A stretch of DNA of 40,539 bases, taken from IMG/VR virus record IMGVR_UViG_2541047802_000008; one strand, 5' to 3'. The stretch is from a virus (taxonomy: Duplodnaviria > Heunggongvirae > Uroviricota > Caudoviricetes). The position numbers were made by a program, and so were the translations under genes. Position 1 is the stretch's first letter; every line of letters starts with the position of its first letter. Below, piece by piece: positions 10,252 to 30,565 of this stretch. The notes under the pieces are model-generated. The model made no database searches. It saw only the letters and a list, made by a program, of their open reading frames with translations, and had not been told where the DNA came from.

Positions 10252-10582
10252 ATCAGCAGCAGAGCGCAAAGCCGCTCAGAGAGCCAGACAAGCTGCATCT
10301 GGTGTGCGTAAGCTGGAGATTGTGCTTGATGCTCAGGAAATTGAAATGCTGGAGCGTAACTGTGCCACACGTCGCCCCGGGCGTGCGCCTTACGAATTTG
10401 GTGAGTATATTGCGTTACTGATCCGCCAGGATGATGCACGCGTGCGCGGGCGTATAAAATCGATCAGCAGAAAACGTTGCGGTAAGTGTGGCGAGAGAGT
10501 TCCTGTGAATTCATGCCCGTGTAATGGTGACTCGCAATGCTGGGTGACCAAAGGCTGGCATGAAACGAAATTAATATTGTGA
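10244..10582 (+). CDS. Hypothetical protein with C-terminal Cys4 zinc-ribbon (112 aa); candidate late-gene regulator
   Basis: AAGGTAAA SD before ATG 10244; C-terminal CGKCGERVPVNSCPCNG; last gene before a promoter/terminator region preceding the terminase genes. Confidence 0.5.
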   Translation: MAKSAAERKAAQRARQAASGVRKLEIVLDAQEIEMLERNCATRRPGRAPYEFGEYIALLIRQDDARVRGRIKSISRKRCGKCGERVPVNSCPCNGDSQCWVTKGWHETKLIL

Positions 10583-10590
10583 CATGTCAC
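10579..10590. repeat. 12-bp perfect palindrome GTGACATGTCAC (copy 1 of 3)
   Basis: Exact palindrome overlapping the stop codon of the 10244..10582 gene. Confidence 0.7.
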
Positions 10591-10631
10591 GAGTGGGTTA
10601 TGCATGATGAATTTGATGGGCTTTGAATACT

Positions 10632-10658
10632 GCCGCCAACTATGGCGGCTTTATTTTG
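10632..10658 (+). terminator. Rho-independent terminator upstream of the terminase genes (tR'-like)
   Basis: GCCGCC-AACTAT-GGCGGC hairpin followed by TTTATTTTG; lies inside the N-terminal extension of the ORF-track terminase-small ORF, arguing for the later start. Confidence 0.55.
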
Positions 10659-10668
10659 CATGGTACTA

Positions 10669-10683
10669 TTACCACAACGGTAA
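10669..10683. promoter_or_regulatory. Operator-like dyad TTACC-ACAAC-GGTAA immediately upstream of the terminase small subunit gene
   Basis: Perfect dyad 18 nt before ATG 10701, followed by an imperfect copy (TTACC-ACGGT-GGTTA) at 10687..10701. Confidence 0.5.
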
Positions 10684-10700
10684 CTATTACCACGGTGGTT

Positions 10701-11297
10701 ATGATGCCTGCTGAACCTAAAACCTATAAACGCAAATCAACGCAATTTAAGCCACTAACAGCAATGCAGGAGGCTTATTGCCAGTCATACATCAAAACTC
10801 CTGAAAACCAGACTCAGGCAGCGATTAACGCAGGATTCTCCCCAAATACAGCGGCAGTTAAAGCCAGTGTCATGATGCGCGATGAACGCATTCAAAAACG
10901 CATTGCCGAGTTGATGGAGGAGCGCAACAAACGAATGCGCGTCAGTGCTGATTACGTTCTCATGCGCCTGGTGGAGATCGACCAGATGGACGTGATTGAT
11001 ATCCTCAACGACGATGGGAGCCTTAAGCCAATCCGCGAGTGGCCGAAAATCTGGCGCACTACGCTTAGCGGCTTTGATCTGTCATCGACCATCATGAACA
11101 TGAACGAGGATTCGATAGAGACAATCCTCAAAAAAATTAAATGGCCTGACAAGGTGAAGAACCTCGAGCTTATCGGTAAGCACGTCGACGTCAACGCGTT
11201 CAAAGAGCGCCTGGATGTTAATGTGAATGTGACAATTGCTGATCGCATAGCAGCAGCCAGGAAGAGACTGAAAGAACGTCAGGATGGCAATCAGTGA
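10701..11297 (+). CDS. Terminase small subunit
   Basis: Translation LTAMQEAYCQSYIKTPENQTQAAINAGFSPNTAAVKASVMMRDERIQKRIAEL matches the Terminase_2-type small subunit pattern; directly precedes and overlaps the large subunit gene. Confidence 0.75.
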   Translation: MMPAEPKTYKRKSTQFKPLTAMQEAYCQSYIKTPENQTQAAINAGFSPNTAAVKASVMMRDERIQKRIAELMEERNKRMRVSADYVLMRLVEIDQMDVIDILNDDGSLKPIREWPKIWRTTLSGFDLSSTIMNMNEDSIETILKKIKWPDKVKNLELIGKHVDVNAFKERLDVNVNVTIADRIAAARKRLKERQDGNQ

Positions 11298-12769
11298 CAG
11301 ATGCAGCGTTATCTCCTGAAGAGCAGTTGATCGAGGATATTGCAGGGTTCACTCACGATCCGCTTGGCTATGCCCTCTATGCGTTCCCGTGGGGGGAAGA
11401 GGGTACTGAACTGGCACATGCCACCGGTCCACGTCAGTGGCAGGCCGATGCGTTCCGAGAGATACGTGATCACCTGCAGAATCCAGAGACGCGATATCAG
11501 CCGCTTATGCTGGCACGTGCTTCTGGTCACGGTATTGGTAAATCCGCATTCATCTCAATGCTGATCAACTGGGGCATGTCCACTTGCGAGGATTGTAAGG
11601 TTGTGGTGACCGCCAACACCGACAACCAGCTACGAACGAAGACCTGGCCGGAAATTATCAAGTGGTCGAACCTTGCTATCACGAAAGACTGGTTTACCTG
11701 TACCGCTACCGCGATGTACAGCAATGATCCTGGACACGACAAGCGGTGGCGAGCTGACGCAATCCCCTGGTCTGAGCACAACACTGAGGCATTCGCCGGA
11801 CTACACAACGAGCGCAAACGCATCATCGTGGTATTCGATGAAGCGTCGAACATTGCGGATCTGGTGTGGGAAGTTGCCGAGGGTGCACTAACGGACGAAG
11901 ACACTGAGATTATCTGGGTGGCGTTCGGAAACCCGACGCGTAATACCGGACGTTTCCGCGAATGTTTCCGCAAATATAAACACCGCTGGAAAACTGCGCA
12001 GATTGACAGCCGAACGGTGGAAGGCACTAACAAACAGCAGTTGCAGAAATGGGTTGATGACTACGGGGAAGACAGCGACTTCGTTAAAATCCGTGTGCGC
12101 GGCATATTCCCTGATGCATCTGAATTGCAGTTTATCCCTACCGGTCTTACTGATGAGGCAATGAAACGGGTGGTAACCGCTGCGCAGGTGGCGCATGCTC
12201 CGGTGATAATCGGCGTTGACCCTGCATACTCCGGTGTTGATGACGCGGTGATATACCTGCGGCAGGGGCTGCACAGTAAGGTGCTGTGGACCGGCAACAA
12301 GACCACTGACGATCTGATTATGGCAAAGCGTATCGCTGACTTTGAAGACCAGTATCAGGCTGACGCGGTGTTCATCGACTTCGGTTACGGTACCGGGCTG
12401 AAGTCAATCGGTGACGGTTGGGGGCGCACATGGCAACTTGTTCCGTTCGGTGGCGCGTCTACTGACCCGCAGATGCTCAACAAGCGTGGGGAGATGTTCA
12501 ATTCATGCAAGACATGGCTGAGGCTGGGCGGCATGCTGGATGACCAGGAAACAGCAGACGACCTGTCGGCGGCAGAGTACAAAGTTCGAGTGGACGGTAA
12601 AATCGTTATCGAACCGAAGGAAGATATCAAGGAGCGGCTTGGGCGTTCACCGGGTAAAGGCGATGCGCTACTGCTGACGTTTGCGTTCCCTGTGTCTAAG
12701 CGTCTGCGAATTCCCGGGCAGCAGAACCAGCAAGGCAAGGCCATCACAGATTACGATCCCTATGCTTAA
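11294..12769 (+). CDS. Terminase large subunit (ATPase/nuclease)
   Basis: 491 aa; GTG start overlapping the small-subunit stop (GTGA); Walker-A-like GHGIGKS; typical position and size. Confidence 0.88.
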   Translation: MTDAALSPEEQLIEDIAGFTHDPLGYALYAFPWGEEGTELAHATGPRQWQADAFREIRDHLQNPETRYQPLMLARASGHGIGKSAFISMLINWGMSTCEDCKVVVTANTDNQLRTKTWPEIIKWSNLAITKDWFTCTATAMYSNDPGHDKRWRADAIPWSEHNTEAFAGLHNERKRIIVVFDEASNIADLVWEVAEGALTDEDTEIIWVAFGNPTRNTGRFRECFRKYKHRWKTAQIDSRTVEGTNKQQLQKWVDDYGEDSDFVKIRVRGIFPDASELQFIPTGLTDEAMKRVVTAAQVAHAPVIIGVDPAYSGVDDAVIYLRQGLHSKVLWTGNKTTDDLIMAKRIADFEDQYQADAVFIDFGYGTGLKSIGDGWGRTWQLVPFGGASTDPQMLNKRGEMFNSCKTWLRLGGMLDDQETADDLSAAEYKVRVDGKIVIEPKEDIKERLGRSPGKGDALLLTFAFPVSKRLRIPGQQNQQGKAITDYDPYA

Positions 12770-12843
12770 TCCGCTTGAGGGGATAATGTTGTTGATATCC
12801 TCTGATGAGGATAAAACAAAGCCAGCTCATAGGCTGGCTGTTT

Positions 12844-12855
12844 GTGATATGTCAC
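12844..12855. repeat. 12-bp palindrome variant GTGATATGTCAC (copy 2 of 3, one mismatch)
   Basis: Between the terminase large gene and the convergent Gp49-like gene. Confidence 0.5.
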
Positions 12856-12859
12856 GGTG

Positions 12860-13234
12860 TTATTGCTCGCTTAACTTCTGCTTCAGCAAGTAACCTTCAA
12901 GCATCCAGATTTTGTTTACAGCATTCTGTCGGGCAATCTTCCGACCAATTTCTGCATCAAAGTTTTCCGGGCTTGCACAGGCGCTCTCTCCGGTGACGGT
13001 GAAGCCGTTGCGCAGCACCAGGACGCAGAAAGTGAGAAGGTGCAGAGCATCAGGGGTGGCTTCGACATAAGGCTCTGGATTATAAATAAGGTCATCTTCT
13101 TTAGCCTGATGATCCCCCTGCGCAGCAGTAAAAAAATGCTCACTGCAAATGAGACCTTCAATTTTCTCAGGAGTTACACGAGGTGCCGTTTTACCTTTCT
13201 CAACGATTTCTTTTTCGATTTGCTGGTCGTTCAT
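12860..13234 (-). CDS. Gp49-like phage protein (conserved, unknown function)
   Basis: 124 aa; AAGGTGAG SD before ATG 13234; C-terminal FDAEIGRKIARQNAVNKIWMLEGYLLKQ resembles N15 gp49-family proteins (from memory). Confidence 0.5.
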   Translation of the reverse strand: MNDQQIEKEIVEKGKTAPRVTPEKIEGLICSEHFFTAAQGDHQAKEDDLIYNPEPYVEATPDALHLLTFCVLVLRNGFTVTGESACASPENFDAEIGRKIARQNAVNKIWMLEGYLLKQKLSEQ

Positions 13235-13245
13235 AATCTCACCTT

Positions 13246-13269
13246 AAAAAAATGCCCGGCGAACCGGGC
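13246..13269 (-). terminator. Rho-independent terminator downstream of the tRNA (minus strand)
   Basis: Plus-strand AAAAAAA-TGCCCGGCGAACCGGGC; on the minus strand the GCCCGG/CCGGGC hairpin is followed by a U7 run. Confidence 0.5.
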
Positions 13270-13438
13270 GAACTGGAAGCAATGAGTTATGCCTTCCGTG
13301 GCTGTACTGGTTTACAGCATGAAGTCATCGCAATGGCGTCCTGCTGTAAAAAGGGCAAGGGCGGTGATAGTCCTTCAAGGGAAACCATCACCGCCAAGCA
13401 CCTGGAACTTCTGGCATCACGGTCCTTAGGCGTGATTC

Positions 13439-13515
13439 TGGCGTGGCATGCAGGATTCGAACCTGCGACCAACCGCTTAGAAGGCGGTTGCTCTGTCCAA
13501 CTGAGCTAATGCCAC
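13439..13515 (-). tRNA. tRNA-Arg (anticodon UCU, reads AGA), phage-encoded, CCA encoded
   Basis: Reverse complement folds as a cloverleaf: acceptor GTGGCAT/ATGCCAC, D-arm GCTC...GAGC, anticodon stem ACCGC/GCGGT with loop CTTCTAA, T-arm GCAGG-TTCGAAT-CCTGC, discriminator G, CCA. Related to but distinct from host argU as recalled. Confidence 0.9.
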
Positions 13516-13837
13516 AACGCTGAGAGCACTTAGCCTGTTAAGGCGCCACACTTTGTCGCGGCTCCATAAATGCTCTCATCGTTGTACCCTCGTCTCTTCC
13601 GAGGCGTCACACCGAATCGCCGGGATGGTGAATCCCCGTGCGCGGAATAAAACCGCTCGACTTGCACATTCCGGCTACCTGGTTCGTTTGCCACAGCCAG
13701 GGAGGGTGCCCCTTAAACGTATCCAGACCGCTATCGGCGCATGTGCCATACGCCGTACTGCTCAAAATAAAAGCTCACTCCACCTGTTTAATTTAACGAC
13801 AAGCCAGTCAGGTTAGTAACCAGAATGAGCCCTTTGG

Positions 13838-13852
13838 TTACCTGAAAGGTAA
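13838..13852. promoter_or_regulatory. Operator-like dyad TTACC-TGAAA-GGTAA upstream of the virion gene cluster
   Basis: Perfect dyad about 90 nt before ATG 13943; followed by a TTAACGCGTTAA palindrome at 13856..13867. Confidence 0.5.
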
Positions 13853-13942
13853 TAATTAACGCGTTAAATGTCAACCTTCTACGATAAATAAATCATATGT
13901 GGTTAAATTGGTAATAATTTAATTGCGTACGGAGTCATTGAT

Positions 13943-14149
13943 ATGTGCATGGGTAGCTCACCATCAGTGCCTGCAACACCAGAAGTTCAGGCAGCACCAC
14001 AGGAGCAGGATGCCGCCGTTGTTGATGCCCGCGACGAAGAAACACGTCGCCGTCGCGCTGCTGCTGGTCGTAGTTCTACGCTGCTTACCGGTTCTCAGGG
14101 CGACACATCAACCGCTAATACCAGCGGTAAAACGCTGCTTGGTCAGTAA
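13943..14149 (+). CDS. Small hypothetical protein (68 aa) preceding the portal gene
   Basis: Strong RBS context GGAGTCATTGATATG, nearly identical to the portal initiation region GGAGTCATTGAAATG. Confidence 0.45.
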   Translation: MCMGSSPSVPATPEVQAAPQEQDAAVVDARDEETRRRRAAAGRSSTLLTGSQGDTSTANTSGKTLLGQ

Positions 14150-14163
14150 CCGGAGTCATTGAA

Positions 14164-15843
14164 ATGGCGGAAACAACTAAAGAGCGATTGAACAAACAGT
14201 TCGCACAACTTGAAAGCGAGCGTCAGTCGTTCGAGCCGCACTGGCGCGAGTTGAGTGATTACATCAACCCGCGTGGTTCCCGCTTTCTGACTTCTGAAGT
14301 CAACCGTAACGATCGACGCAATACACGCATTATTGATTCGACCGGGACTATGGCGGCGCGCACTCTCGCCAGCGGCATGATGTCAGGCATCACAAGCCCT
14401 GCGCGTCCGTGGTTTCGCCTGGCTACGCCAGATCCTGAAATGATGGATTATGGTCCTGTTAAGTTGTGGCTCGAGGCGGTGCAGAACCGCATGAACGATA
14501 TGTTCAATAAGTCGAATCTCTACCAGTCTCTTCCGCAGTTATACGGAAGCCTCGGCACATACAGCACTGGTGCAATGGCGGTGCTGGAGGATGACGAGGA
14601 CATCATTCGCACAATGCCATTCCCGATAGGCAGTTACTACCTGGCTAACTCACCTCGTGGCAGTGTGGACACCTGTTTTCGCAAGTTCTCTATGACTGTT
14701 CGTCAGCTTGTTCAGGAGTTCGGGCTAAATAACGTCAGCGAATCCGTAAAAAGCATGTGGGAAAGCGGCACCTACGAGAAGTGGATTGAAGTGATGCATT
14801 CGGTTTACCCGAACATTGACCGCGATACATCGAAGCTGGATAGCAAGAACAAGCCATTCAAATCGGTTTATTACGAGGTTGGTGGCGATAACGACAAGTT
14901 GTTGCGTGAGTCCGGATTCGATGAGTTTCCAATTATGGCTCCGCGCTGGGAAGTTAACGGCGAAGATGTTTATGGATCATCATGCCCGGGTATGCTGGCG
15001 CTTGGACCTGTTAAGGCATTGCAGCTTCTCCAGAAGCGCAAGTCGCAGTTGATTGATAAAGCCACCAATCCGCCGATGGTTGCTCCGACTTCCCTCAAGA
15101 ATCAGCGCGCCTCCCTTCTTCCTGGCGACATCACGTATATCGATCAGATTACTGGTCAGGATGGTTTCAGGCCTGCTTATCTGGTTAACCCCAGTACAGC
15201 AGATTTGGTGGCAGACATTCAGGACACTCGTCAAATCATTAACAGCGCCTACTTTGTCGATCTGTTCATGATGTTGCAGAACATCAATACCCGCTCGATG
15301 CCTGTGGAAGCGGTGATCGAAATGAAAGAAGAAAAACTTCTGATGTTGGGGCCGGTTCTGGAGCGCCTGAACGACGAATGTCTTAATCCTCTCATTGACC
15401 GCTCTTTCTCGATGATGGTGCGTAAAAACATGCTGCCGCCACCGCCAGACGTGATGGAAGGTATGCCCCTGAAGGTCGAATACATTTCCGTCATGGCTCA
15501 GGCGCAGAAGTCTATCGGCCTGTCCAGTCTGGCGTCCACGGTTAACTTCATTGGTCAACTTGCGCAAGCGAAACCAGAAGCTCTCGACAAACTCAACGTT
15601 GATCAGGCGATCGATGCATTCGCTGATATGTCCGGAGTGTCTCCAACCGTCATTGTTCCGCAGGAACAGGTTGAGCAGGCTCGCCAGCAACGGGCACAGC
15701 AACAACAGCAGCAACAAATGATGGCGATGGGGATGGCGGCGGCACAGGGTGCCAAGACGCTAAGCGAAGCTAAAACTTCGGATCCGAGTGTTTTGTCAGC
15801 TATGGCGAATGCAGTTAGTGGTCAGGGTGGGCAATCACAATGA
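14164..15843 (+). CDS. Portal (head-to-tail connector) protein, T7 gp8-like
   Basis: 559 aa; N-terminus and the Gln/Ala/Met-rich C-terminal tail (QQQQQQQMMAMGMAAAQGA) parallel T7 gp8 as recalled. Confidence 0.85.
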   Translation: MAETTKERLNKQFAQLESERQSFEPHWRELSDYINPRGSRFLTSEVNRNDRRNTRIIDSTGTMAARTLASGMMSGITSPARPWFRLATPDPEMMDYGPVKLWLEAVQNRMNDMFNKSNLYQSLPQLYGSLGTYSTGAMAVLEDDEDIIRTMPFPIGSYYLANSPRGSVDTCFRKFSMTVRQLVQEFGLNNVSESVKSMWESGTYEKWIEVMHSVYPNIDRDTSKLDSKNKPFKSVYYEVGGDNDKLLRESGFDEFPIMAPRWEVNGEDVYGSSCPGMLALGPVKALQLLQKRKSQLIDKATNPPMVAPTSLKNQRASLLPGDITYIDQITGQDGFRPAYLVNPSTADLVADIQDTRQIINSAYFVDLFMMLQNINTRSMPVEAVIEMKEEKLLMLGPVLERLNDECLNPLIDRSFSMMVRKNMLPPPPDVMEGMPLKVEYISVMAQAQKSIGLSSLASTVNFIGQLAQAKPEALDKLNVDQAIDAFADMSGVSPTVIVPQEQVEQARQQRAQQQQQQQMMAMGMAAAQGAKTLSEAKTSDPSVLSAMANAVSGQGGQSQ

Positions 15844-16136
15844 CAGATTACGAAGACGATCAACTGAAAGAAGAAAACGCCCGTAAGCAACGTGACATGG
15901 CACAGCGTGAAATTGATGACATTTGCTTTGTCATGAGCAGTGAACAGGGGCGTCGCGTTGTCTGGTCGGTGCTGGAGAAAGGCCGTGTGTTTTCCGCTAT
16001 CTCACCGATGGACGCTATGGCAATGGCATTTAATGAGGGGCAACGCAATCTGGCGCTGGAACTGTTTCAGCGCGTTATGGCGCATTGCCCTGAACAGTAT
16101 TTGAAGATGGCCAAAGAGGCCAGTGAACAGGAGTGA
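15840..16136 (+). CDS. Hypothetical head-assembly-region protein (98 aa)
   Basis: ATGA overlap with the portal stop; coupled in the late operon. Confidence 0.5.
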   Translation: MTDYEDDQLKEENARKQRDMAQREIDDICFVMSSEQGRRVVWSVLEKGRVFSAISPMDAMAMAFNEGQRNLALELFQRVMAHCPEQYLKMAKEASEQE

Positions 16137-16138
16137 TC

Positions 16139-16834
16139 ATGAATTTATTTGAGCGTTTGCTGTATCGCCGTCTTTGCAATGAGCAACCAGTCGATGGTGG
16201 AGCAGCTCCGGCTGCGTCAGAACCGTCAGCGCCTGCAGGTGATAACCCTGCTCCAGTTGGTGATCCATCACAACAGGAAGGTGATAAGCCACAACCTGTT
16301 GCTGATGGCGATAAACCTGATGATGAAAAAAAATCTGAAAACGATAAGCAGGGTGAAAAAAAGGACGGCGATAAACCAGAGGGTGCGCCGGAGAAGTACG
16401 AATTTCATGCTGCCGAAGGCGTAGAGCTGGATACAGAAGCGTTGAAGGAATTCGAGCCGGTGGCGCGAGAACTAAACCTGACCAACGAGCAAGCGCAAAA
16501 GCTGGTTGATGCTTATCCGAAGATTCTGGCAGGTGTGCAGCAGCGCCAGGCAGAAGCCTGGCAGAAAACAACCGAGCAGTGGGCTGCTGATGTAAAAGCT
16601 GACAAAGAAATTGGTGGCGACAAGTTGATTTCTAACCTTAGCGCCGCACAGCGTGCGCTTGACCAGTTCGGGACACCCGAGCTCAAAGAATATCTGAACA
16701 CCACCGGGCTGGGTAATCACCCTGATCTGGTCAAAACGTTCGTGAAAATCGGAAAGGCGATGTCTGAAGATGGCATGGTCACCGGTGGTAATGAAGGCCA
16801 GCGTAGTGCGGCCGAAGTGCTCTATGGCAAATAA
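16139..16834 (+). CDS. Scaffolding protein candidate (acidic, low-complexity)
   Basis: GGAG SD before ATG 16139; Pro/Asp/Glu/Lys-rich N-terminal half; located between portal and major capsid as in T7 (gp9). Confidence 0.6.
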   Translation: MNLFERLLYRRLCNEQPVDGGAAPAASEPSAPAGDNPAPVGDPSQQEGDKPQPVADGDKPDDEKKSENDKQGEKKDGDKPEGAPEKYEFHAAEGVELDTEALKEFEPVARELNLTNEQAQKLVDAYPKILAGVQQRQAEAWQKTTEQWAADVKADKEIGGDKLISNLSAAQRALDQFGTPELKEYLNTTGLGNHPDLVKTFVKIGKAMSEDGMVTGGNEGQRSAAEVLYGK

Positions 16835-16842
16835 GAGAGGAA

Positions 16843-17835: not shown

Positions 17836-17886
17836 CGCCTGTTATTAACCTGTGGGCCGCAACAGGCCCACTAATGGAGAAAGAAG

Positions 17887-18324: not shown

Positions 18325-18334
18325 GGTGATATTG

Positions 18335-18670: not shown

Positions 18671-18686
18671 GCCTCGCGGATCAGAC

Positions 18687-18708: not shown

Positions 18709-18720
18709 GCAGGAGTGTAT

Positions 18721-19044: not shown

Positions 19045-19649
19045 TGTCCTCTGTAGTAGAGATCTGTAATCGTGCGCTGTCCAATATTGGCAACAGCCGC
19101 AGCATTAACAGCCTGACGGAAGCCAGCAAGGAAGCGGGGGAATGTTCGCTGCACTTTGAGGCCTGCCGTGATGCTGTGCTTTCTGATTTTGACTGGAACT
19201 TTGCTACCAAACGCGTGGCGCTTGCAGATACGAGCAATCCACCGCCTGACTGGGAATATGCGTACCAGTACCCGTCAGATTGTCTGCGCATTACTGAAAT
19301 TATGCTTCCTGGTGTACGCAATCCAACAGCAGCAATGCGCGTTCAGTACGAAGTTGGTGCAGACACCAACGGAACAGGAAAGTTGATCTACACAGACCAG
19401 CCTCAGGCATGGCTCAAGTATGTCTCTCGCGTTACAGATGTGAACATGTTTGATGCCATTTTTATGGAGGCGTTGGCCTGGCGTCTTGCGGCAGCTATTA
19501 ACATGGCGCTGACTGGGAATGCAGACCTCGGTACGTTTGCCCTCAATATGTACAATCGCGTGATTCTTAGTGCTGGCTCGCATAGCCAGAATGAATCACA
19601 GGAACCACAGCCACCGGTTGACGAGTTTACCATTGCGAGGTTGTCCTGA
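19044..19649 (+). CDS. Tail tubular protein A / adaptor (T7 gp11-like)
   Basis: 201 aa; N-terminal ICNRALSNIGNSRSINSLTE parallels the T7 gp11 N-terminus as recalled; GGAGGTGA SD; TGATG overlap with the previous gene. Confidence 0.6.
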   Translation: MSSVVEICNRALSNIGNSRSINSLTEASKEAGECSLHFEACRDAVLSDFDWNFATKRVALADTSNPPPDWEYAYQYPSDCLRITEIMLPGVRNPTAAMRVQYEVGADTNGTGKLIYTDQPQAWLKYVSRVTDVNMFDAIFMEALAWRLAAAINMALTGNADLGTFALNMYNRVILSAGSHSQNESQEPQPPVDEFTIARLS

Positions 19650-22126
19650 TGGCTATCAGTTGGATTCAGCCCAGCTTTGCTGGTGGTGAGATTGGACCGT
19701 CGTTGTACGGACGTATCGACATGGCGAAGTACCAGGTGGCATTGCGCAAGTGCGATAACTTTATCGTGCGGCAGTATGGCGGCGTTGAGAATCGACCTGG
19801 TACGCGTTTTGTCGGTGCCGCCAAATATCCAAATCGGAAATGCCGCCTGATCCCGTTCCAGTTCTCGACGGTTCAGACCTATGCTCTGGAGTTCGGACAC
19901 CAGTACATGCGCGTTATCAAAGATGGTGCGTTGGTGCTGAACAGCAGCAATGTTATTTATGAAATTTCCACGCCATATACTGAAGCCGATCTGTTCCGAA
20001 TTAAATTCACGCAAAGCGCAGACGTGCTTACGCTGGTTCATCCGGCATACCCGCCGAAAGAGTTGCGCCGCTATGCGCATGACAACTGGCAACTGGTTGA
20101 TGTGGTAACGAAGAACGGGCCATTTGAAGATATCAATATTGACGAGTCAGTGACGGTTTATGCCAGCGCCAGCACCGGGACAATTACGTTAACGGCAAGC
20201 GCCTCTATTTTTGGCGCGGAGCAGGTAGGCAAATTGTTCTATCTGGAACAGCCTGCAGTGGATTCAGTGCCGGTATGGGAAACCAGTAAGAGTACGTCGA
20301 TTGGCGATATTCGCCGTGCAGACAGTAACTACTATCGAGCCGTTACAGCAGGCAAAACAGGTACTTTGCGCCCTTCGCATACAGAAGGCACATCATGGGA
20401 TGGCTGGGGCGGATCCGGTGATGATGATACTGGCATTGAGTGGGAATATCTGCACAGTGGTTTTGGCATTGCCCGTATCACTGCTGCAAATGGAACTACT
20501 GCAACTGCCGAGGTGATTTCCTATATCCCTTCGCAGGTAGTTGGCGAGGATAATGCCAGCTATAAATGGGCTAAATATGCCTGGAACAGTGTTAATGGTT
20601 ATCCTGGCACTGTTGTTTATTATCAACAACGTCTTTACTTCGCCGCATCGACTGCGTTCCCTCAGACTATCTGGGCCAGCCGTACCGGGGATTATAAGGA
20701 TTTTGGCAAAAGCAATCCTACGCAGGATGACGACAGAATTATCTACACCTATGCCGGGCGTCAGGTTAATGAGATCCGCCACCTGATTGATGTCGGTTCG
20801 CTGGTGGCGCTGACTTCCGGAGGTGAGTACGTCATCACTGGCGACCAGAACAAAGTGCTTACCCCATCATCATTTGCATTCAGCTCTCAGGGATCAAATG
20901 GCTCGAGCAATGTCCCACCAATTGCCGTGGCGAATATTGCTCTGTTCGTCCAGGAGAAAGGCAGTGTTGTCCGTGATCTGGCCTACTCATTCGATGTTGA
21001 CGGCTATCAGGGGAACGACCTGACCATCCTTGCCAATCATCTTTTTCAGAAGCACAGCATTGTTGACTGGTGCTTCTCAATAGTCCCTTACTCCAGCGCC
21101 TTCTGCATCCGTGATGACGGTAAATTACTGGTGATGACCTATTTGCGTGATCAACAGGTTTTTGCATGGGCACCACAGTCCAGTACCGGAAAATATGAAA
21201 GCACATGCAGTATCAGCGAAGGCAATGAAGATGCGGTGTATTTCGTCATTAACCGAACCGTTAACGGGCAAACAGTGAGATACATCGAGCGACTGTCCAG
21301 CCGTTTATTTACCAGCGATGAAGATGCTTTCTTTGTTGATTCTGGCCTTAGCTATGATGGAAGAAATACGTCTGACAGAACGATGACCATCACTGGTGGT
21401 TCTGGCGAATGGGATTACCGCGCGGAATATACAATCAGTGTTTCTGGTGGTGCGTACTTCACCAGTAGTGATGTCGGCGCGCAACTACAGTTCCCTTTCC
21501 CTTATACCGGAACTGATCCTGATACTGGCGATGAGGTGTCAAAAGAATTACGTTGCGACATTATTTCTGTAACCAGCAATACCGCTGTAGTGGTTCGTGC
21601 TAACAGGAACGTCCCGCCATCCCTCAGGAATGTGGCCACCACGAACTGGCAGATGGCGCGCCGGACATTTGGAGGCCTGTCTCATCTTGAAGGCCAGACC
21701 GTAAACATTCTCTCTGATGCGAACGTGGAACCACAGAAAGTGGTTTCCGGAGGTGCCGTCACGCTGGAATCACCGGGGGCTGTAGTGCACATCGGCCTGC
21801 CAATAACTGCTGAATTCGAAACACTGGATATCAACATTAACGGACAGGAAACGCTGCTGGACAAAAAACAGGTGATCCCGTCCGTTACTCTGGTTGTGAA
21901 TGCCAGTCGCGGCATCTGGGCGACTACGCCCGGCGGTAAATGGTACGAATATCCACAGCGTGAATTCGAGTTCTACGATGATCCTGTTGATGATGCTACC
22001 GGAAAAGTAGAAGTGAAACTGGACAGTAACTGGGGCAAAAACGGACGTGTAAAAATCCGTCAGCTTGATCCGTTGCCGCTGTCTGTTCTTGCCGTTATTC
22101 CTCGCCTTACTGTTGGTGGGTTCTGA
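19649..22126 (+). CDS. Large tail protein (tail tubular protein B / nozzle-like)
   Basis: 825 aa; follows the gp11-like gene as in T7-like gene order; family assignment uncertain. Confidence 0.55.
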   Translation: MAISWIQPSFAGGEIGPSLYGRIDMAKYQVALRKCDNFIVRQYGGVENRPGTRFVGAAKYPNRKCRLIPFQFSTVQTYALEFGHQYMRVIKDGALVLNSSNVIYEISTPYTEADLFRIKFTQSADVLTLVHPAYPPKELRRYAHDNWQLVDVVTKNGPFEDINIDESVTVYASASTGTITLTASASIFGAEQVGKLFYLEQPAVDSVPVWETSKSTSIGDIRRADSNYYRAVTAGKTGTLRPSHTEGTSWDGWGGSGDDDTGIEWEYLHSGFGIARITAANGTTATAEVISYIPSQVVGEDNASYKWAKYAWNSVNGYPGTVVYYQQRLYFAASTAFPQTIWASRTGDYKDFGKSNPTQDDDRIIYTYAGRQVNEIRHLIDVGSLVALTSGGEYVITGDQNKVLTPSSFAFSSQGSNGSSNVPPIAVANIALFVQEKGSVVRDLAYSFDVDGYQGNDLTILANHLFQKHSIVDWCFSIVPYSSAFCIRDDGKLLVMTYLRDQQVFAWAPQSSTGKYESTCSISEGNEDAVYFVINRTVNGQTVRYIERLSSRLFTSDEDAFFVDSGLSYDGRNTSDRTMTITGGSGEWDYRAEYTISVSGGAYFTSSDVGAQLQFPFPYTGTDPDTGDEVSKELRCDIISVTSNTAVVVRANRNVPPSLRNVATTNWQMARRTFGGLSHLEGQTVNILSDANVEPQKVVSGGAVTLESPGAVVHIGLPITAEFETLDININGQETLLDKKQVIPSVTLVVNASRGIWATTPGGKWYEYPQREFEFYDDPVDDATGKVEVKLDSNWGKNGRVKIRQLDPLPLSVLAVIPRLTVGGF

Positions 22127-22590: not shown

Positions 22591-23165
22591 TGTGCGATCC
22601 GGTTATTGCTGGTGGCGCAATGCTCGCCATGAGTGGCATTCAGGCATACACCCAGTACCAACAGGGAAAGTATGCCTCGAAGGTTGCAGAAGCGAACGCA
22701 GATATAGCCACTGCTCAGGCAAATGATGCAATAAACAGAGGTAACGCTGAAGCTGAGCAACGGCGCAGAGAGACCCGACAGCGGCTTGGTACACAGGCGG
22801 CGACAATGGGGGCGACCGGCGCCGATTTATCTACAGGTAACGCGCTGGATATATTTGGTGACACTGCTCAGTTCGGCGCTCTTGATTCGCTGACGACGGT
22901 GAATAACGCGCAACGCGAGGCTTACGGTTATCAGGTTCAGGCTGCCAACTATAAAGCAGAAGCCAGTTCAGCCCGTAAACAGGGGAATGTGGGAGCAGCA
23001 ACAACATTGCTCACTGCGCCTCTGAAGGCATACGGTGCGTACCAGATGTTTGGTGGGACGTGGAGTCCGTTCTCTAAAGGAAGTACATCTAGTGGTGGGA
23101 CGCCAATGTTATCTAACTCAGGTTTTATGAATTCTGACTCCCGATTCAAAATAGGAGGTTACTGA
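22590..23165 (+). CDS. Virion-module protein (191 aa), possibly internal virion protein
   Basis: GGAGAG SD; Ala/Gly/Gln-rich. Confidence 0.45.
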   Translation: MCDPVIAGGAMLAMSGIQAYTQYQQGKYASKVAEANADIATAQANDAINRGNAEAEQRRRETRQRLGTQAATMGATGADLSTGNALDIFGDTAQFGALDSLTTVNNAQREAYGYQVQAANYKAEASSARKQGNVGAATTLLTAPLKAYGAYQMFGGTWSPFSKGSTSSGGTPMLSNSGFMNSDSRFKIGGY

Positions 23166-25678: not shown

Positions 25679-27477
25679 GTTACTTTGGCCTTAATCCAGT
25701 AAACCAGAATCAGCAGCTTGACGAAGCAGCATCAAATCCAGCTGGCTTTAACAGCGATGTTGGTTTTTTCGACAATGCTGTAGGAGCGGCATTGTCTGGT
25801 TTGTACTCCGGGCTGGTGGCAAAGCCAGATCAGTTGCTATGGGCAGGGATGGATAAAATCGTATCCCCGATTGCTCAGTTTGTTAACGAAAACACCTCGA
25901 TCAATGACACTTCAGTTTCATACATTGCTGAGCAGAGAAAACTAGCAGAGCAGCAGGTTAAGCGGCTGACGCCTGATGCCGCGACAACCGGAACCGCCGG
26001 GCAGGTCCTTTATGGGTTGTTCGATATGGGCGGGCAGGCTGTTGTCGGTACAACGCTCGGTGGTCCGGTCGGAGGTGCTGCGGCGGTAACTTCTCTACAG
26101 GGTTTTTCTGAGTTTGAACGGCTTACAGCACAGGGTGTTGATTTCAGGACGGCGCAGGAAGCGGGATTAGTGCAGGGTATTACTGCTGGTGCCGGAACAC
26201 TGATCCCTATGAGCCTCGGGTTACGTGCTGGTGGTGCGCTGGCGGAAGGTGTGGCGGCTCAGCTTGCGCGGACGGGTGAAAGTTCAGTGCGACGCGCCGC
26301 AGCAACAGCAGTACGTGCAACGCCAGATATTGCCTATGCCGCAGGTACAAATATTGCGTTCGGTATGGCACAGCGTGGGCTTACTGCAAAAACGCTTCGT
26401 GATGGTGGCTATAGCGAAATGGCTAACCAGTATGATGTGTTGGATCGACAGGCAATTGCTATTGATGCTGTTCTTGGGGTGGCGTTTGGTGGTGTCGGCA
26501 GATTTATTAACTCTCGCGGCGAGTCTACAAGCGCACCAAATTTTTCACCAGTTGATATCGATGCTGCACTGGCGGCGAATGCCGCTCATCATGCTGAAAT
26601 TGATATTGCTCCCGGCGTGCCGATCAACGTGCTTTCGCGTAATTCGCACATTCAGGCTCTGCGAAAAGCCATGTCTGATGTTAGCCAGGGGAGACCTGTA
26701 GACGTTGCCAGCATTGTTGAGTCTGCATCTTTCAGTGAAATTCCTGGACGCAAGAGTCTGCTGTCTCAGGCAGTTAATGAGGCTCTGTCATCTGTAGATG
26801 ATGGAGTAACGGCGCGCGCTATAGAAAATCGGTTGCTTGAAGAACAGGCCGCGCAGCTTTTGCCGCGTGGCGATAGACAGGTTTACCAGTCTGAAATCGC
26901 TAATAGCCAACGAATTATTGAAAATCTCACTGAACAGCGCGCACAAATTCTTGCAGAAGATCCAGCCGGTAGCGGTAAGGCTTTATCTCGTGCTCGATCA
27001 GATAAACAGGCCAGACTTCGCGATATTGACCAACGAATCCGGCAGGCACAAGAACGCCTGGAATTTTCTCGTAACGCGTTGGCACCGCATGAGCCTGGCG
27101 GTCAGTTTTTTGAAGCTCGAGCAGAACTGGCTCGGAGACAGCAGGCAGAAAGTGAACTTAATGCTCAGGCTGTTTCATTCTATAAAACAGCAGAGGTCAG
27201 GACGCCAGACGAAGTAGCTCCTTTTGAGCCTGATAAAATATTGCAACAGGCAGAACAAAAAATGATGTCAGATCAGGCAGGAGATATTGATTTGCGCATA
27301 GCTGAAGACTCGCTGATTGAATCACCTGACATGATAATCACCGTGCTGGATGATGATGGTAATCCACAATCGCGCAGTGCGCGTGAAGCACTGGATGAAG
27401 CGAACAGGGAAAGTGAGCAGGCAATACAGGATTCCAGCCTGTTTGATGTCGCTGTGGCGTGTTTCTTGAGAGGTTAA
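25675..27477 (+). CDS. Internal virion / DNA-ejection protein (600 aa)
   Basis: ATGA overlap with the upstream gene; Ala/Gly-rich N-terminus and coiled-coil-like C-terminus. Confidence 0.55.
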   Translation: MSYFGLNPVNQNQQLDEAASNPAGFNSDVGFFDNAVGAALSGLYSGLVAKPDQLLWAGMDKIVSPIAQFVNENTSINDTSVSYIAEQRKLAEQQVKRLTPDAATTGTAGQVLYGLFDMGGQAVVGTTLGGPVGGAAAVTSLQGFSEFERLTAQGVDFRTAQEAGLVQGITAGAGTLIPMSLGLRAGGALAEGVAAQLARTGESSVRRAAATAVRATPDIAYAAGTNIAFGMAQRGLTAKTLRDGGYSEMANQYDVLDRQAIAIDAVLGVAFGGVGRFINSRGESTSAPNFSPVDIDAALAANAAHHAEIDIAPGVPINVLSRNSHIQALRKAMSDVSQGRPVDVASIVESASFSEIPGRKSLLSQAVNEALSSVDDGVTARAIENRLLEEQAAQLLPRGDRQVYQSEIANSQRIIENLTEQRAQILAEDPAGSGKALSRARSDKQARLRDIDQRIRQAQERLEFSRNALAPHEPGGQFFEARAELARRQQAESELNAQAVSFYKTAEVRTPDEVAPFEPDKILQQAEQKMMSDQAGDIDLRIAEDSLIESPDMIITVLDDDGNPQSRSAREALDEANRESEQAIQDSSLFDVAVACFLRG

Positions 27478-27482
27478 ATTAA

Positions 27483-29957
27483 ATGAGACAGGAATGTATA
27501 CAAGCGGTTCAGCAGGCGGCGCAGCGCATGTTAACGGCGCGAGAAATACAGAACATTGAAGACCGCATTTATCGAAATATGCGCTCCATTGCTCGTGATG
27601 ACCCTATGTCGTGGCGACAACTTTCCGAATCAGAGCGGCTATATCGAGCAGCACAATTGGCATCTGAAGAATTACAGCGAGAAGCGGCATTAAAGAAACG
27701 TCGTGTGGCTCTAACTATAGCCGCGCGTCAGAGATTGGATAAATTTATCAATAGCTATCAAGGGGCTGATGGGAAACTTGGCGCTCTTAACCGTACTATA
27801 GCTTTTAATGCAGACGGTAAATCTAATTTCCTCTCTGTTGAATCCAGAACAAAAGCCACCCGTGATTATGCATTGAGTCAATTGCAGGAGGCATTCGAAG
27901 CAGTTGATCCTCGCTTTTTTGGTCTGTTTGAAGATGAAGCGGGCGTACGTGACCTGGTATATGAAATGCGGGGGCAAAATACTGGCAATGCTAAAGCAAG
28001 AAACGGTGCTAAGGCGTGGAGAGAAGTTACAGAGCTGCTGCGCCGCCGGTTTAATGATGCTGGTGGGGACATTGGCTATCTCGAAAACTGGGGGATCCCT
28101 CAACATCATTCTATGGAAAAGGTTGGGGCAGTATCAAAGGATAAGTGGGTTAGCGATGTTATAGGTAAGCTGGATCGCAAATATTATATCCGAGCCGATG
28201 GACAACTGATGAACGATGCCGAGTTGTCTTCATTTCTTGGAGAGGCTTATAACACGATCGCTACTGGTGGGCTGAATAAGCTTACTGATACCGGAATGCG
28301 AATTTCCGGCGCACGTGCTAACCGTGGTAATGCATCACGACAGATACATTTCAAAGATGCAGATTCCTATCTGCAATATCAGCAACTTTATGGCGATCGC
28401 TCTCTATGGGAAATCATGGTCGGTCACCTGGAAGGTATCAGTAAAGATATTGCACTGGTGGAAACATATGGCCCAAACCCCGATCATGTTTTCCGCTCTC
28501 TTCTTGATCAGGTGAAGGCAGAAACGGCAACAGCTAACCCGAGTAAAACCGGTAAAGTCGAGCGGCTGGCGAACAACACAGAGAATCTGTACAACTTTAT
28601 TTCCGGAAAGACACAGCCTGTAGCGAATCCGCACATCGCGCGATGGTCTGACAATATCCGCAACTGGCTGGTTGCCAGCAGACTCGGATCCGCGTTGCTG
28701 TCATCGTTCTCTGATCTTGGAACCATGTATCTGTCTGCGAAGGTTACCAACCTTCCAATAAACCAGTTATTCCGCAACCAGCTTGAAGCTATGGACCCAA
28801 CGAACCGTACAGAACTTGCGCGGGCTCGCCGCGCTGGTCTGGCGATGGAATCTCTACTTGGCAGCGTTAACCGCTGGGCGATGGATAATATGGGGCCGTC
28901 AGTGTCTCGTTGGGCGGCAACGGCGGTAATGCGTGCCAGTGGGCTTACAGCATGGTCAGATGCGCACAAGCGCGCCTATGGCGTAACCATGATGGGAAGC
29001 CTGGGAGAAGTAGTGTCACGGACACCAGACCTTCGTAGCCTCGATGACTCTGATTTTCGTATCCTGAAAAGCAAAGGGATTACTGACACAGACTGGAGCG
29101 TATGGAAGCTGGCGAAACAGGAGGACTGGGGGAACGGTAATAATACGATGCTGACACCGGAAAGCATTATGCGTATCCCTGATTCAGCAGTTAAACATCT
29201 TGGTGAGCCTGAACGCGTGAAATTTGAGGCAATGCGTAAACTGCTCGGTGCCGTAACTGAAGAAGTTGATATGGCTGTTATTACACCGGGAGCACGTGAG
29301 CAACTGATAACCGGTTCTGGTATTCAGCGTGGAACATGGAAAGGTGAATTAACGAGAAGTGTTTTCCTGTTTAAATCGTTCCCTATCTCGGTTGTTATGC
29401 GTCACTGGTCACGCGCTATGGGTATGCCGTCTGCTGGTGGGCGTGCGGCATATATTGCGACGTTTATTGCCAGTACGACCATTCTTGGCGCTTTGTCGCA
29501 GCAACTTAACGACCTTGCGTCTGGTCGTAATCCTCGAGAGATGACAGGAGAAGATGCCGCAAAATTCTGGCTTGGTGCTCTACTGAAAGGTGGTGGTCTT
29601 GGCCTTTACGGTGACTTTTTATTGTCAGATCACACTAGGTACGGAAGCGGCGCGCTGGCGTCGATGCTTGGCCCGGTAGCTGGTCTGGTTGATGACGTAG
29701 TGAAGATTGCTCAGGGCATACCGTTAAATGCTGTGGAAGGGAAGAGTGAGCAGACTGGTGGTGATCTGGTGAAGCTGGGGAAAGGTTTGATGCCTGGTGC
29801 GAATCTCTGGTACTTGAAGGCGGCTCTCGATCACATGATCTTTAACCAGATGCAGGAGTATTTTTCACCAGGCTATTTGCGTAAAATGGAGCAACGTTCG
29901 AAGAAAGAGTTTAACCAGACATACTGGTGGCGACCACAGGATGTCACTCCGCAATAA
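27483..29957 (+). CDS. Internal virion / DNA-ejection protein (824 aa)
   Basis: Large ORF completing the podovirus core-protein trio before the accessory island. Confidence 0.55.
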   Translation: MRQECIQAVQQAAQRMLTAREIQNIEDRIYRNMRSIARDDPMSWRQLSESERLYRAAQLASEELQREAALKKRRVALTIAARQRLDKFINSYQGADGKLGALNRTIAFNADGKSNFLSVESRTKATRDYALSQLQEAFEAVDPRFFGLFEDEAGVRDLVYEMRGQNTGNAKARNGAKAWREVTELLRRRFNDAGGDIGYLENWGIPQHHSMEKVGAVSKDKWVSDVIGKLDRKYYIRADGQLMNDAELSSFLGEAYNTIATGGLNKLTDTGMRISGARANRGNASRQIHFKDADSYLQYQQLYGDRSLWEIMVGHLEGISKDIALVETYGPNPDHVFRSLLDQVKAETATANPSKTGKVERLANNTENLYNFISGKTQPVANPHIARWSDNIRNWLVASRLGSALLSSFSDLGTMYLSAKVTNLPINQLFRNQLEAMDPTNRTELARARRAGLAMESLLGSVNRWAMDNMGPSVSRWAATAVMRASGLTAWSDAHKRAYGVTMMGSLGEVVSRTPDLRSLDDSDFRILKSKGITDTDWSVWKLAKQEDWGNGNNTMLTPESIMRIPDSAVKHLGEPERVKFEAMRKLLGAVTEEVDMAVITPGAREQLITGSGIQRGTWKGELTRSVFLFKSFPISVVMRHWSRAMGMPSAGGRAAYIATFIASTTILGALSQQLNDLASGRNPREMTGEDAAKFWLGALLKGGGLGLYGDFLLSDHTRYGSGALASMLGPVAGLVDDVVKIAQGIPLNAVEGKSEQTGGDLVKLGKGLMPGANLWYLKAALDHMIFNQMQEYFSPGYLRKMEQRSKKEFNQTYWWRPQDVTPQ

Positions 29958-29965
29958 AAGGAGAT

Positions 29966-30091
29966 ATGATGGTTCAAATAACTTTTATTGTACTAATATG
30001 TGCAGCGTTTTTATGCTATTCATACATTTTGATAAAAATGGGTTTCAATTGGAATCTCTGTTGCGTGCAGCGGCATGGTTCGGCTTTGTAG
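29966..30091 (+). CDS. Small hydrophobic peptide candidate (41 aa)
   Basis: AAGGAG at 29958..29963 followed by two in-frame ATGs at 29966 and 29969; translation MMVQITFIVLICAAFLCYSYILIKMGFNWNLCCVQRHGSAL. An overlapping alternative frame (29998..30129) also encodes a hydrophobic peptide; which is real is unresolved. Confidence 0.25.
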   Translation: MMVQITFIVLICAAFLCYSYILIKMGFNWNLCCVQRHGSAL

Positions 30092-30176
30092 TATTCGGAA
30101 TTGTATTGTTCGGAAGAATAATAAAATAACTAGTTAATTTGTGGATTGGTGCTGTTTTTCCATGATAGGGGTAATT

Positions 30177-30557
30177 ATGAGAAAAGTATTTTTGATTTTT
30201 GGATTTATGCTTCTCGTTGGATGCCAGTCAGCTGCACAGTTTGAAAGAAATATGCTTACGTGGCGCGGGCAGAGTATAGACGCAATGGTTCAGCAGTGGG
30301 GGTATCCTCAGGGAGAGCTTACATCTCCAGATGGAAACAGAGTGTATGTTTACTCAAGCTCTGGTAGTTATAACGTACCACAAACCACAACGTATAATAC
30401 TACGTCTAATCTAATTGGTAATACTATATATTCAAACACATACGCAACAACTGATGGCGGTTATACACTCCATTTCAGTTGCTCTGTTTACGTTGAGTTT
30501 GGTGCTGATAAGATTATTAAAAATGTTACATGGCGCGGTAATAATTGCGTTGCGTGA
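30177..30557 (+). CDS. Lipoprotein (126 aa) with signal peptide and lipobox LVGC; accessory gene
   Basis: MRKVFLIFGFMLLVGCQS signal/lipobox; Thr/Ser/Tyr-rich mature region; AT-rich surroundings. Confidence 0.6.
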   Translation: MRKVFLIFGFMLLVGCQSAAQFERNMLTWRGQSIDAMVQQWGYPQGELTSPDGNRVYVYSSSGSYNVPQTTTYNTTSNLIGNTIYSNTYATTDGGYTLHFSCSVYVEFGADKIIKNVTWRGNNCVA

Positions 30558-30565
30558 CATGTCAC
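30554..30565. repeat. 12-bp perfect palindrome GTGACATGTCAC (copy 3 of 3)
   Basis: Overlaps the lipoprotein stop codon and directly abuts the terminator hairpin. Confidence 0.7.

Follow-up and report, generated by a model that had tools for sequence, protein, structure and literature searches.

A matS-like palindrome at operon ends of a Uetakevirus prophage and its association with PHROG 536, a family of candidate DNA-binding proteins

The closest described counterpart of the element reported here is matS, GTGAC[AG]N[TC]GTCAC, the site of the Ter-macrodomain protein MatP (PMC3116907, PMC3603311), whose matS-binding and dimerization core is a ribbon-helix-helix (RHH) fold (PMC12756933). Bobay et al. 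reported that matS is absent from 500 prophages and argued for counter-selection (PMC3603311); the regular expression used in that work would have missed a form of 12 bp. We analysed a 12-bp palindrome, GTGACATGTCAC, that recurs at operon ends in a 40,539-nucleotide stretch of viral DNA (Caudoviricetes; IMG/VR record IMGVR_UViG_2541047802_000008), which as a whole is called the window below. The half-sites of the palindrome are identical to those of matS but stand 1 bp closer together, and the motif accompanies one phage gene family, PHROG 536, whose product is a candidate for the protein that binds it. A literature search for the 12-mer found no paper, its 10-mer core matching only primers and unrelated sequences, and a search for work linking MatP-like proteins or matS-like sites to phages likewise found none.

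A palindrome at three operon ends

By BLAST against a phage collection, the window is an epsilon15/phiV10-like Escherichia coli prophage of the genus Uetakevirus, 95–97% identical to phiV10-like phages and ~80% identical to Salmonella epsilon15, SPN1S and Enterobacter Tyrion. A preliminary description of this DNA, made from the letters alone, had claimed exact copies of the palindrome at 10579 and 30554 and a one-mismatch copy at 12844. Our scan of the window recovered all three, and added a further one-mismatch copy; these copies and the hairpins next to them are as follows.

10579-10590: palindrome copy 1 (site 1), exact GTGACATGTCAC, extended TGTGACATGTCAC; includes the TGA stop (10580-10582) of the gene 10241-10582
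10632-10659, plus strand: intrinsic terminator at the end of the early-right operon, stem GCCGCC/GGCGGC plus TTTATTTT, 41 nt downstream of copy 1
12820-12839: hairpin between the convergent terL (plus strand) and 12860-13234 (minus strand); both strands score as terminator, with the better U-tract on the minus strand
12844-12855: palindrome copy 2 (site 2), one mismatch, GTGATATGTCAC (C5>T), with the hairpin on one side and the minus-strand gene stop on the other
15892-15903: extra one-mismatch copy, GTGACATGGCAC, inside the coding sequence 15840-16136 (Bbp19-like)
30554-30565: palindrome copy 3 (site 3), exact GTGACATGTCAC(A); abuts the terminator stem 30566-30583 and its T-run
30566-30590, plus strand: intrinsic terminator closing the structural (late) operon, with AGGCCGC-TTTC-GCGGCCT plus TGTTTTT

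Within a longer duplex the wild-type site reads TGTGACATGTCACA. The four matches with at most one mismatch to the 12-mer compare with 0.10 expected, none of 100 dinucleotide shuffles gave four, and the probability of at least two exact copies under a uniform-model Poisson is 2.9e-6. No other 12-mer palindrome recurs in the window, and the same uniqueness holds in each Uetakevirus genome. A chance origin, which the preliminary description had considered unlikely, was rejected on these three grounds. The copy at 15892 is shared only with phiV10 (5306) and is absent, at up to two mismatches, from epsilon15, SPN1S and Tyrion; it is probably fortuitous and outside the system.

Three sites remain, and they share one anatomy: along the direction of transcription a stop codon comes first, the palindrome second and an intrinsic terminator third. 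Copy 2 is 75 nt past the terL stop (12769), with 4 nt separating it from the hairpin 12820-12839 on one side and 4 nt from the stop of 12860-13234, the minus-strand gene, on the other, and it is this last gene that gives the order at site 2. The terminator at 30566-30590 has an RNA fold of -16.5 kcal/mol (z -3.3), and the epsilon15 record annotates the equivalent of the hairpin 10632-10659 as a terminator. The earlier claims about position thus held throughout: the overlap with the stops of 10241-10582 and of the lipoprotein gene 30141-30557, the abutment on a terminator, the location of the near copy downstream of terL, and the description of the three places as module boundaries, each copy being at an operon end next to a terminator. 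A misfit to the site of CRP had also been pointed out correctly, as the sequence TGTGA-CATG-TCACA has a spacer of four, whereas CRP needs TGTGA-N6-TCACA.

The preliminary description had proposed a scan of related genomes. The same 12-mer is found at three syntenic sites in each of four Uetakevirus relatives; control viral DNA contains the general form of the motif at near-chance density (counts below).

phiV10: site 1 split across the record ends, one-mismatch GTGACATGTTAC; site 2 at 2262 and site 3 at 19493, both exact
epsilon15: site 1 at 39612, site 2 at 2142, site 3 at 19517, all exact
SPN1S: site 1 at 38653, site 2 at 2174, site 3 at 19662, all exact
Tyrion: site 1 split across the record ends, exact; site 2 at 2702; site 3 at 20377

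The flanks of these conserved palindromes are ~20% divergent and contain different neighbouring genes. At site 2 the sequence of the terminator stem in epsilon15, SPN1S and Tyrion differs from that in the window while the adjacent palindrome is kept, and the spacer from site 1 to its terminator is 41 nt here versus 22 nt in epsilon15. Because the 12-mer is kept at syntenic sites while stems, spacers and neighbouring genes change, we take it for a functional cis element: an invariant palindrome amid diverging flanks is the signature of purifying constraint. The element is absent from the GenBank feature tables of epsilon15 and phiV10; the epsilon15 table has entries for repressor, IHF, RNase III and integrase sites, and none at the three palindromes. 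A candidate fourth site, at the Rz stop, was dropped: it reads GTGACATGTCAT in SPN1S and GTGACATGGCAT in epsilon15, and is degenerate in the window (ATAGCATGGCAT at 39246).

The palindrome and the PHROG 536 gene family

In its general form the element is GTGAC-N2-GTCAC, with an outer T/A often present to give TGTGACA/TGTCACA. In unrelated phages this motif accompanies homologues of the gene that ends in site 1, down to 31% identity, usually 0-13 nt after the stop of the homologue.

10241-10582, plus strand: candidate binding-protein gene, 113 aa from TTG 10241, with an ATG at 10244
Chlobot (lambda-like): gene at 89% DNA identity; one motif copy, 6 nt past the homologue stop
ZF40 (Pectobacterium myovirus): 67% identity; three exact copies, one 3 nt past the stop and two flanking cI-cro-cII in coding sequence
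Yersinia P2-like phage: 39% identity; one exact and one one-mismatch copy, 33 bp apart, intergenic
N15: gene 46, 35% identity; GTGACTGGTCAC or its complement three times, one copy overlapping the gene 46 stop as in the window (P 1.4e-5)
N15 sites: 28550, 33237 and 39269, GTGAC(TG/CA)GTCAC
Vibrio K303: 31% identity; GTGAC-(AC/GC)-GTCAC three times (P 6.8e-6)

The sites in N15 lie in the leader of the antirepressor operon, ~115 nt upstream of its terminator, inside repA, and over the gene 46 stop before the ribosome-binding site (RBS) of gene 47. The pair in the Yersinia phage, placed in an intergenic promoter region, looks like a classical operator pair. Terminator adjacency is true in Uetakevirus and not in ZF40, the Yersinia phage or K303.

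Across 7 independent lineages (290 kb), GTGAC-N2-GTCAC has 13 matches, spread over 6 genomes, where 0.28 are expected (P of at least 13, 6.8e-18). The next-best palindrome of the same 5-N2-5 design has 4 matches in the same 7 lineages, and GTGAC is the top half-site there at a gap of 2 alone. Lambda, P22 and P2 contain 0 copies. The spacing is strict: in 1.7 Mb of fetched phage DNA a gap of 2 occurs 169 times, a gap of 3 twice, and any other gap from 0 to 8 between 0 and 3 times. Fixed half-sites with a free centre and a fixed spacing are a dimer-type symmetry.

The association extends to uncultivated viruses. Scanning IMG/VR with the 14-mer placed a homologue in 32 of 120 loci among the matches listed, a few kb being fetched per locus, and in ~20 of those 32 the motif was 0-13 nt beyond the homologue stop. 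A control scan with the 3-bp-spacer pattern TGTGACANTGTCACA placed one in 0 of 120 loci among the matches listed (Fisher P = 4e-11), the two scans being compared by the homologue content of the listed loci and not by total counts. At least two N2 sites were present in 25 of the 120 loci listed for the 14-mer, where the chance of a second site per ~10 kb is about 0.01. Control viral DNA (1.0 Mb) contained 3 N2 sites against ~1 expected. When one genome per bacterial species was scanned, most matches were chance ones scattered over all phyla, and a homologue was present in 3 of the 120 loci listed, all Enterobacterales.

The gene 10241-10582 is a homologue of epsilon15 gp49, phiV10 gp55 and N15 gp46, and tblastn found homologues in 154 phage records. 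A profile search matched its product to phrog_536 over its full length (E 1.1e-54, residues 2-112 of 113); the PHROG label is 'transcriptional regulator', all source names being 'hypothetical protein', and no Pfam or NCBIfam family was found for the protein, although a few Vibrio homologues have a Pfam entry, RepB-RCR_reg (PF10723). It is predicted to consist of a basic N-terminal helix, an RHH core and a C-terminal Cys4 segment (CxxC...C...C). Invariant in a 30-member alignment are R8, K9, Q12 and R13 of the basic helix, L36, Y50, E54, L59 and D63, and the cysteines C79, C82 and C93, with C99 nearly so. The AlphaFold model (pLDDT 80.6, pTM 0.59) has a helix at 5-18, an extended segment at 19-29, a helix at 30-42, a long helix at 52-75 and a coil-rich Cys4 tail. 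CopG/TacA, MazE, TraM, AmrZ, ParD, Arc, FitA and MetJ, all RHH DNA binders, are among the matches to the protein, and its core models as RHH, a DNA-binding fold class. Foldseek with the model gave no significant match (best 5ytp, probability 0.84).

The C-terminal Cys4 domain (residues ~50-108) was also compared with the TraR/DksA zinc finger of PDB 6n57_M; the match is not significant (E 0.66) and is kept as a hint. Zinc fingers of the TraR/DksA type bind RNA polymerase, and the non-significant similarity would fit a factor that touches it.

The motif is thus constrained, symmetric in the manner of a dimer's site, and tied both statistically and by position to a gene whose product is modelled as RHH, and because of this we infer, at a probability of roughly 0.55, that the palindrome is the cognate DNA site of the protein encoded by 10241-10582. 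Of the functions offered in the preliminary description, a binding site for a phage regulator is the best supported, because the motif co-occurs with one phage gene family, that of the 'zinc-ribbon gene' named there, which now provides a candidate protein. Dimers of the predicted RHH protein would recognize both GTGAC half-sites, located at the 3' ends of the early-right operon, of the terS-terL/gp50 convergent pair and of the structural operon. Bound there, the protein could mark or insulate operon boundaries and act as a roadblock that reinforces termination, chiefly in the direction for which a hairpin at a convergent junction (site 2 or site 3) has no U-tract. Another option, considered because two to three sites per genome are the rule, is that it might bridge sites, as proposed for MatP at matS. 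The element, a candidate pair of RHH protein and palindromic sites, is widespread in temperate phages of enterobacteria and vibrios. The proposal offers a testable function for a widespread unnamed family, present in Uetakevirus, N15-like, P2-like, ZF40-like and Vibrio phages, and the protein might find use as a tool if its DNA binding should prove tight and orthogonal.

Several observations weigh against assigning the palindrome to this protein. In 88 of the 120 listed IMG/VR loci no homologue lies within the few kb fetched, some of these loci being ZF40-like, where it is expected farther off. Escherichia phage SaltyDalty (complete genome, 36.9 kb, PP925825.1), of a lambdoid group, has two N2 sites and no detectable PHROG 536 homologue. 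Its sites, at 15420 and 18870, are one just after cro or overlapping the cro end and one inside a Q-like gene, with the central dinucleotide varying there, and its relatives L048, L074, L085, L092 and L101 likewise have two sites ~3.5-4 kb apart; such sites would belong to another binder, to a host factor or to the protein supplied in trans from another prophage. An Aeromonas homologue (31%) is accompanied by three copies of an asymmetric variant, GTGACCGGACAC, rather than by the palindrome. Several sites stand just 5' of a Shine-Dalgarno sequence or upstream of a terminator, which a role in RNA would explain equally well. Finally, late control, roadblock, insulation and bridging as consequences of binding are speculative.

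Operon context and neighbouring motifs

The gene map of the window, based on the annotated phiV10 and epsilon15 records, is as follows.

Left end of the window: integrase
Minus strand: early-left operon
5331-5915, minus strand: CI-like repressor
Early-right operon: last gene is the 113-aa gene 10241-10582
10623-12769: terS and terL, with the terL stop at 12769
12860-13234, minus strand: 124-aa gene of the Phage_gp49_66 / Sf6 gene 66 family (Pfam PF13876, E 1.8e-34)
30141-30557, plus strand: lipoprotein gene, 138 aa, lipobox LLVGC, TGA stop within palindrome copy 3
Up to ~30557: structural operon; then cargo genes, tailspike and lysis cassette

The slot upstream of site 3 is occupied by the lipoprotein gene here, by a gene for a two-transmembrane (2-TM) peptide in phiV10 and SPN1S, and by other genes in epsilon15 and Tyrion; the products encoded there in phiV10 (19345-19485), epsilon15 (19326-19520) and Tyrion (20064-20375) are small proteins unrelated to the lipoprotein. 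Despite this exchange of cargo genes, palindrome and terminator are retained at site 3 in all three phages. The gene upstream of site 3 holds a moron position, and the motif is a compact marker for operon ends and cargo slots.

A second motif, TTACC-N5-GGTAA, is present in the window as 11 exact and 3 one-mismatch copies against 0.6 expected.

TTACC-N5-GGTAA positions: 5197, 5259, 5971, 6019, 6356, 8295, 8357, 10669, 10687, 13838, 31667, 32695, 32788, 33908

The copies lie on both sides of the CI-like repressor gene (OL/OR) and just upstream of terS (10669, 10687), the portal operon (13838) and the tailspike gene (33908), and they correspond to 'repressor' protein_bind features in the epsilon15 record. 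Judged from these positions, the prophage repressor seems to control late operons directly, and the late operons that follow (terS, portal, tailspike) presumably each have their own promoter. If the late operons are independently repressed in this way, the units of terminator plus palindrome would therefore be natural insulators between them.

The sequence GTGACA within the palindrome matches the -35 hexamer at 5 of 6 positions on both strands. At site 1 (10579-10608) a -10-like hexamer follows 17-18 nt on, CATGAT here and TAAATT in epsilon15 (39612-39646), before the terminator. The layout of -35, -10 and terminator is reminiscent of lambda PR'-tR', but it is not seen at sites 2 and 3. We considered site 1 as a late promoter and set the idea aside as a general explanation: it is plausible there only, the pattern is missing at sites 2 and 3 and in other lineages, and no conserved promoter was found at the palindrome sites.

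Other arrangements of the motif were seen beyond Uetakevirus. In ZF40-like phages (5125 and 7622 in ZF40) and a low-GC (0.38) group, two exact palindromes 2-5 kb apart bracket cI-cro-cII; immunity-bracketing loci in IMG/VR are L054, L056, L067, L075 and L078, and L025, L049 and L059. These bracketing sites are within coding sequences (the 3' end of cII, an early-left gene) or downstream of gam, with diverged flanks. The positions in ZF40-, L049- and SaltyDalty-like phages suggest control of early transcription or looping around the switch. In Aeromonas phage 14AhydR10PP the variant copies at 251, 3032 and 29428 are each 13-15 nt upstream of a start codon, one of them that of the homologue itself, and two are 14-16 nt downstream of a good -10 hexamer; this cassette of motif and Shine-Dalgarno sequence resembles GTCACGGAGGGTTAAAAATG, the cassette after N15 gene 46. 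Some metagenomic phages contain many copies of the matS-type GTGACA-N-TGTCAC: six in 3.9 kb in L186 (276-2137), five in 10.5 kb in L202 (2303-10299), with further rich loci in L144, L163 and L203, the copies often beside divergent gene starts. No PHROG 536 or MatP homologue was found within these stretches, which probably represent a separate regulator-operator system.

Alternatives and comparison with known systems

A host factor might bind the sites instead, whether MatP tolerating a 12-bp variant, SlmA or another protein, to position, condense or insulate phage DNA. All named hosts (Escherichia, Salmonella, Enterobacter, Pectobacterium, Yersinia, Vibrio and Aeromonas) fall within the clade known to carry MatP. 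The half-sites are those of matS, and phages of the SaltyDalty type keep two conserved sites without a gene of the gp49 family. The outer four bases are moreover present in the SlmA site (PMC3116907). We nevertheless regard a host factor as unlikely. The spacer is strictly 2 bp (169 occurrences versus 2 with 3 bp in the 1.7 Mb), and removing 1 bp rotates the half-sites by ~34 degrees relative to each other; true matS is absent from the 500 prophages and argued to be counter-selected (PMC3603311); and neither the site 0-13 nt from the stop of one gene family in ~20 independent loci nor the lack of a homologue in all 120 listed matS-type loci would be explained.

The same sites could act in RNA, a GUGA-CAUG-UCAC hairpin (as a 16-nt RNA, UUGUGACAUGUCACAG) being bound by the arginine-rich N-terminus or the zinc domain of the protein and modulating a terminator or an RBS. 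Models for such an element are antitermination by N/nut and BglG/RAT and the action of Mu Com at a ribosome-binding site. Several positions would suit it: the three window sites are between stop codon and intrinsic terminator along transcription, and at sites 2 and 3 the small hairpin stacks immediately against that of the terminator; N15, Chlobot, K303 and the Aeromonas phage have the motif just ahead of a Shine-Dalgarno sequence, 10-19 nt from the start codon that follows; and the sites of ZF40-like and L049-like phages, placed on either side of the immunity region in the early transcripts to the left and right, recall nutL and nutR. The natural syntenic one-mismatch variants GTGATATGTCAC and GTGACATGTTAC keep G.U pairing, but C>T transitions are the commonest mutations anyway, and while AERKAAQRARQ, the N-terminus of the protein, is similar to RNA-binding motifs of the arginine-rich kind, the core is modelled as a DNA-binding fold. 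On its own the hairpin has marginal stability (-1.2 kcal/mol, not exceeding that of shuffled sequences) and the Aeromonas variant GTGACCGGACAC could not form it, having an A.A mismatch. Compensatory stem changes occur in no lineage; instead the half-sites are invariant and variation is confined to the two bases at the centre, the hallmark of a DNA site bound by a dimer, and the Yersinia sites, 33 bp apart upstream of a gene, fit DNA operators. We are accordingly doubtful of an RNA element.

A passive linker, a module-junction sequence that promotes exchange and is possibly cut or paired by a phage function, is very improbable. BLAST homology to other phages starts at about the palindrome edge at site 3 (window 30553) and ends at about that edge at site 1 (window 10591-10592), and the slot upstream of site 3 holds variable cargo; but a conserved element in divergent DNA gives the same breakpoints, which hence do not count as independent evidence, homologous recombination would not be efficient over as little as 12 bp, ZF40-like and SaltyDalty-like sites lie inside conserved coding sequence and not at mosaic joints, and no recombinase or nuclease is linked to the motif. 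Least credible of all is the recognition site of a restriction, homing or methyltransferase enzyme, such as the prophage MT-A70 enzyme that the preliminary description had raised, which found no support: the site is palindromic and contains CATG, and methyltransferase genes exist in these phages, but the central CATG is unconserved (TG in N15, AC or GC in K303) and only the outer GTGAC half-sites are kept, two to three copies of 12-14 bp per genome at fixed positions are not a dispersed short motif, and the motif tracks the gene of the RHH/zinc-ribbon protein and not the MT-A70 gene or any single methylase family, N15, ZF40, K303 and the Yersinia phage carrying it with other methylases or none adjacent.

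Returning to the palindrome as the site of the PHROG 536 protein, we compared the pair with known systems. Site 1 has the order of lambda Q/qut-tR' and N/nut, regulator gene, cis site, terminator and late (terminase) genes, and the ZF40-like and L049-like sites flank the immunity region in both early transcripts as do those of N/nut. The phage protein, however, has no homology to Q or N; N15 and Chlobot have a Q-like gene of their own besides the PHROG 536 protein, SaltyDalty has the sites and a Q-like gene, and the phage site recurs at operon ends rather than once near a promoter.

The site of SlmA is a 12-bp palindrome, GTGAGTACTCAC, of the same length as the phage site and with the same outer GTGA...TCAC, but it departs from the phage site at positions 5 and 8 and in the centre. 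SlmA, which acts in nucleoid occlusion, belongs to the TetR family, and there is no evidence for it here.

The predicted fold class of the phage protein is that of the RHH repressors (omega of pSM19035, CopG, Arc/Mnt, MetJ and the ParD/TacA antitoxins), small dimers whose sites are short and either symmetric or repeated. For omega these are 7-bp heptads, WATCACW, paired directly or in inverted orientation, and TGTGACA/TGTCACA, the 14-mer of the phages, is readable as two inverted heptads ending in TCACA. The phage protein differs from these repressors in its extra C-terminal Cys4 domain, in having sites at the 3' end of its own gene and at other operon ends and not at its own promoter, and in standing without a toxin, partition or copy-control partner gene.

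The centromere of N15 likewise consists of a few palindromes, IR1-4, dispersed in a phage genome and recognized by SopB, and N15 carries both systems. The possibility that the GTGACTGGTCAC copies are SopB sites was rejected since the published inverted repeats, GTGCGACC-NN-GGTCGCAC, differ (PMC7205306, Table 4 therein). The annotation of the homologous genomes, those of phiV10 and epsilon15, includes no ParB/SopB gene.

The closest resemblance is to MatP and matS, with equally definite differences. The 13-bp GTGAC-RNY-GTCAC is not what the phages contain, their spacer being 2 bp; matS is situated in the chromosomal Ter region, whereas the phage sites are beside terminators or in early operons; and the N-terminal four-helix bundle and C-terminal coiled coil of MatP are both absent from the phage protein, which has a Cys4 domain there instead. 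True MatP proteins have both PF06303 (N-terminal) and PF17414 (RHH/coiled-coil), and neither was hit at E ≤ 10 among 30 members of the phage family. Aligning the family profile with E. coli MatP by hhalign gave a non-significant match (E 0.49, probability 0.1) of 24 columns in the register of the RHH helices, the MatP relatives found being near-identical E. coli proteins only, so that no diverse MatP profile stands behind the comparison. An extension of this register upstream, which is our own reading and outside the hhalign alignment, would pair RK-x-x-I-x-L-D with RK-x-x-I-x-L-E of MatP. Sequence homology to MatP was thus not detected, and the likeness to matS may reflect distant homology, convergence on the half-site, mimicry or deliberate orthogonality to the host system.

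A bolder and quite tentative extension is that temperate phages of MatP-bearing bacteria carry a 'mini-MatP', an RHH/zinc protein with two to three matS-like sites whose spacer, 1 bp shorter, makes them ignored by host MatP. If true, the protein could arrange phage DNA in loops, enclosing the immunity region in phages like ZF40 and the terminase and structural modules here. It could instead shield the genome from host complexes of the SMC/MukBEF type, or act in trans on the early-operon sites of other phages (just past cro, within cII or Q), such as SaltyDalty, and so be a means of interference between phages. The element is in effect a matS one base shorter, found where true matS is reported to be avoided by prophages, and the two may be parallel, orthogonal pairs of protein and site, the phage one organizing or insulating phage DNA.

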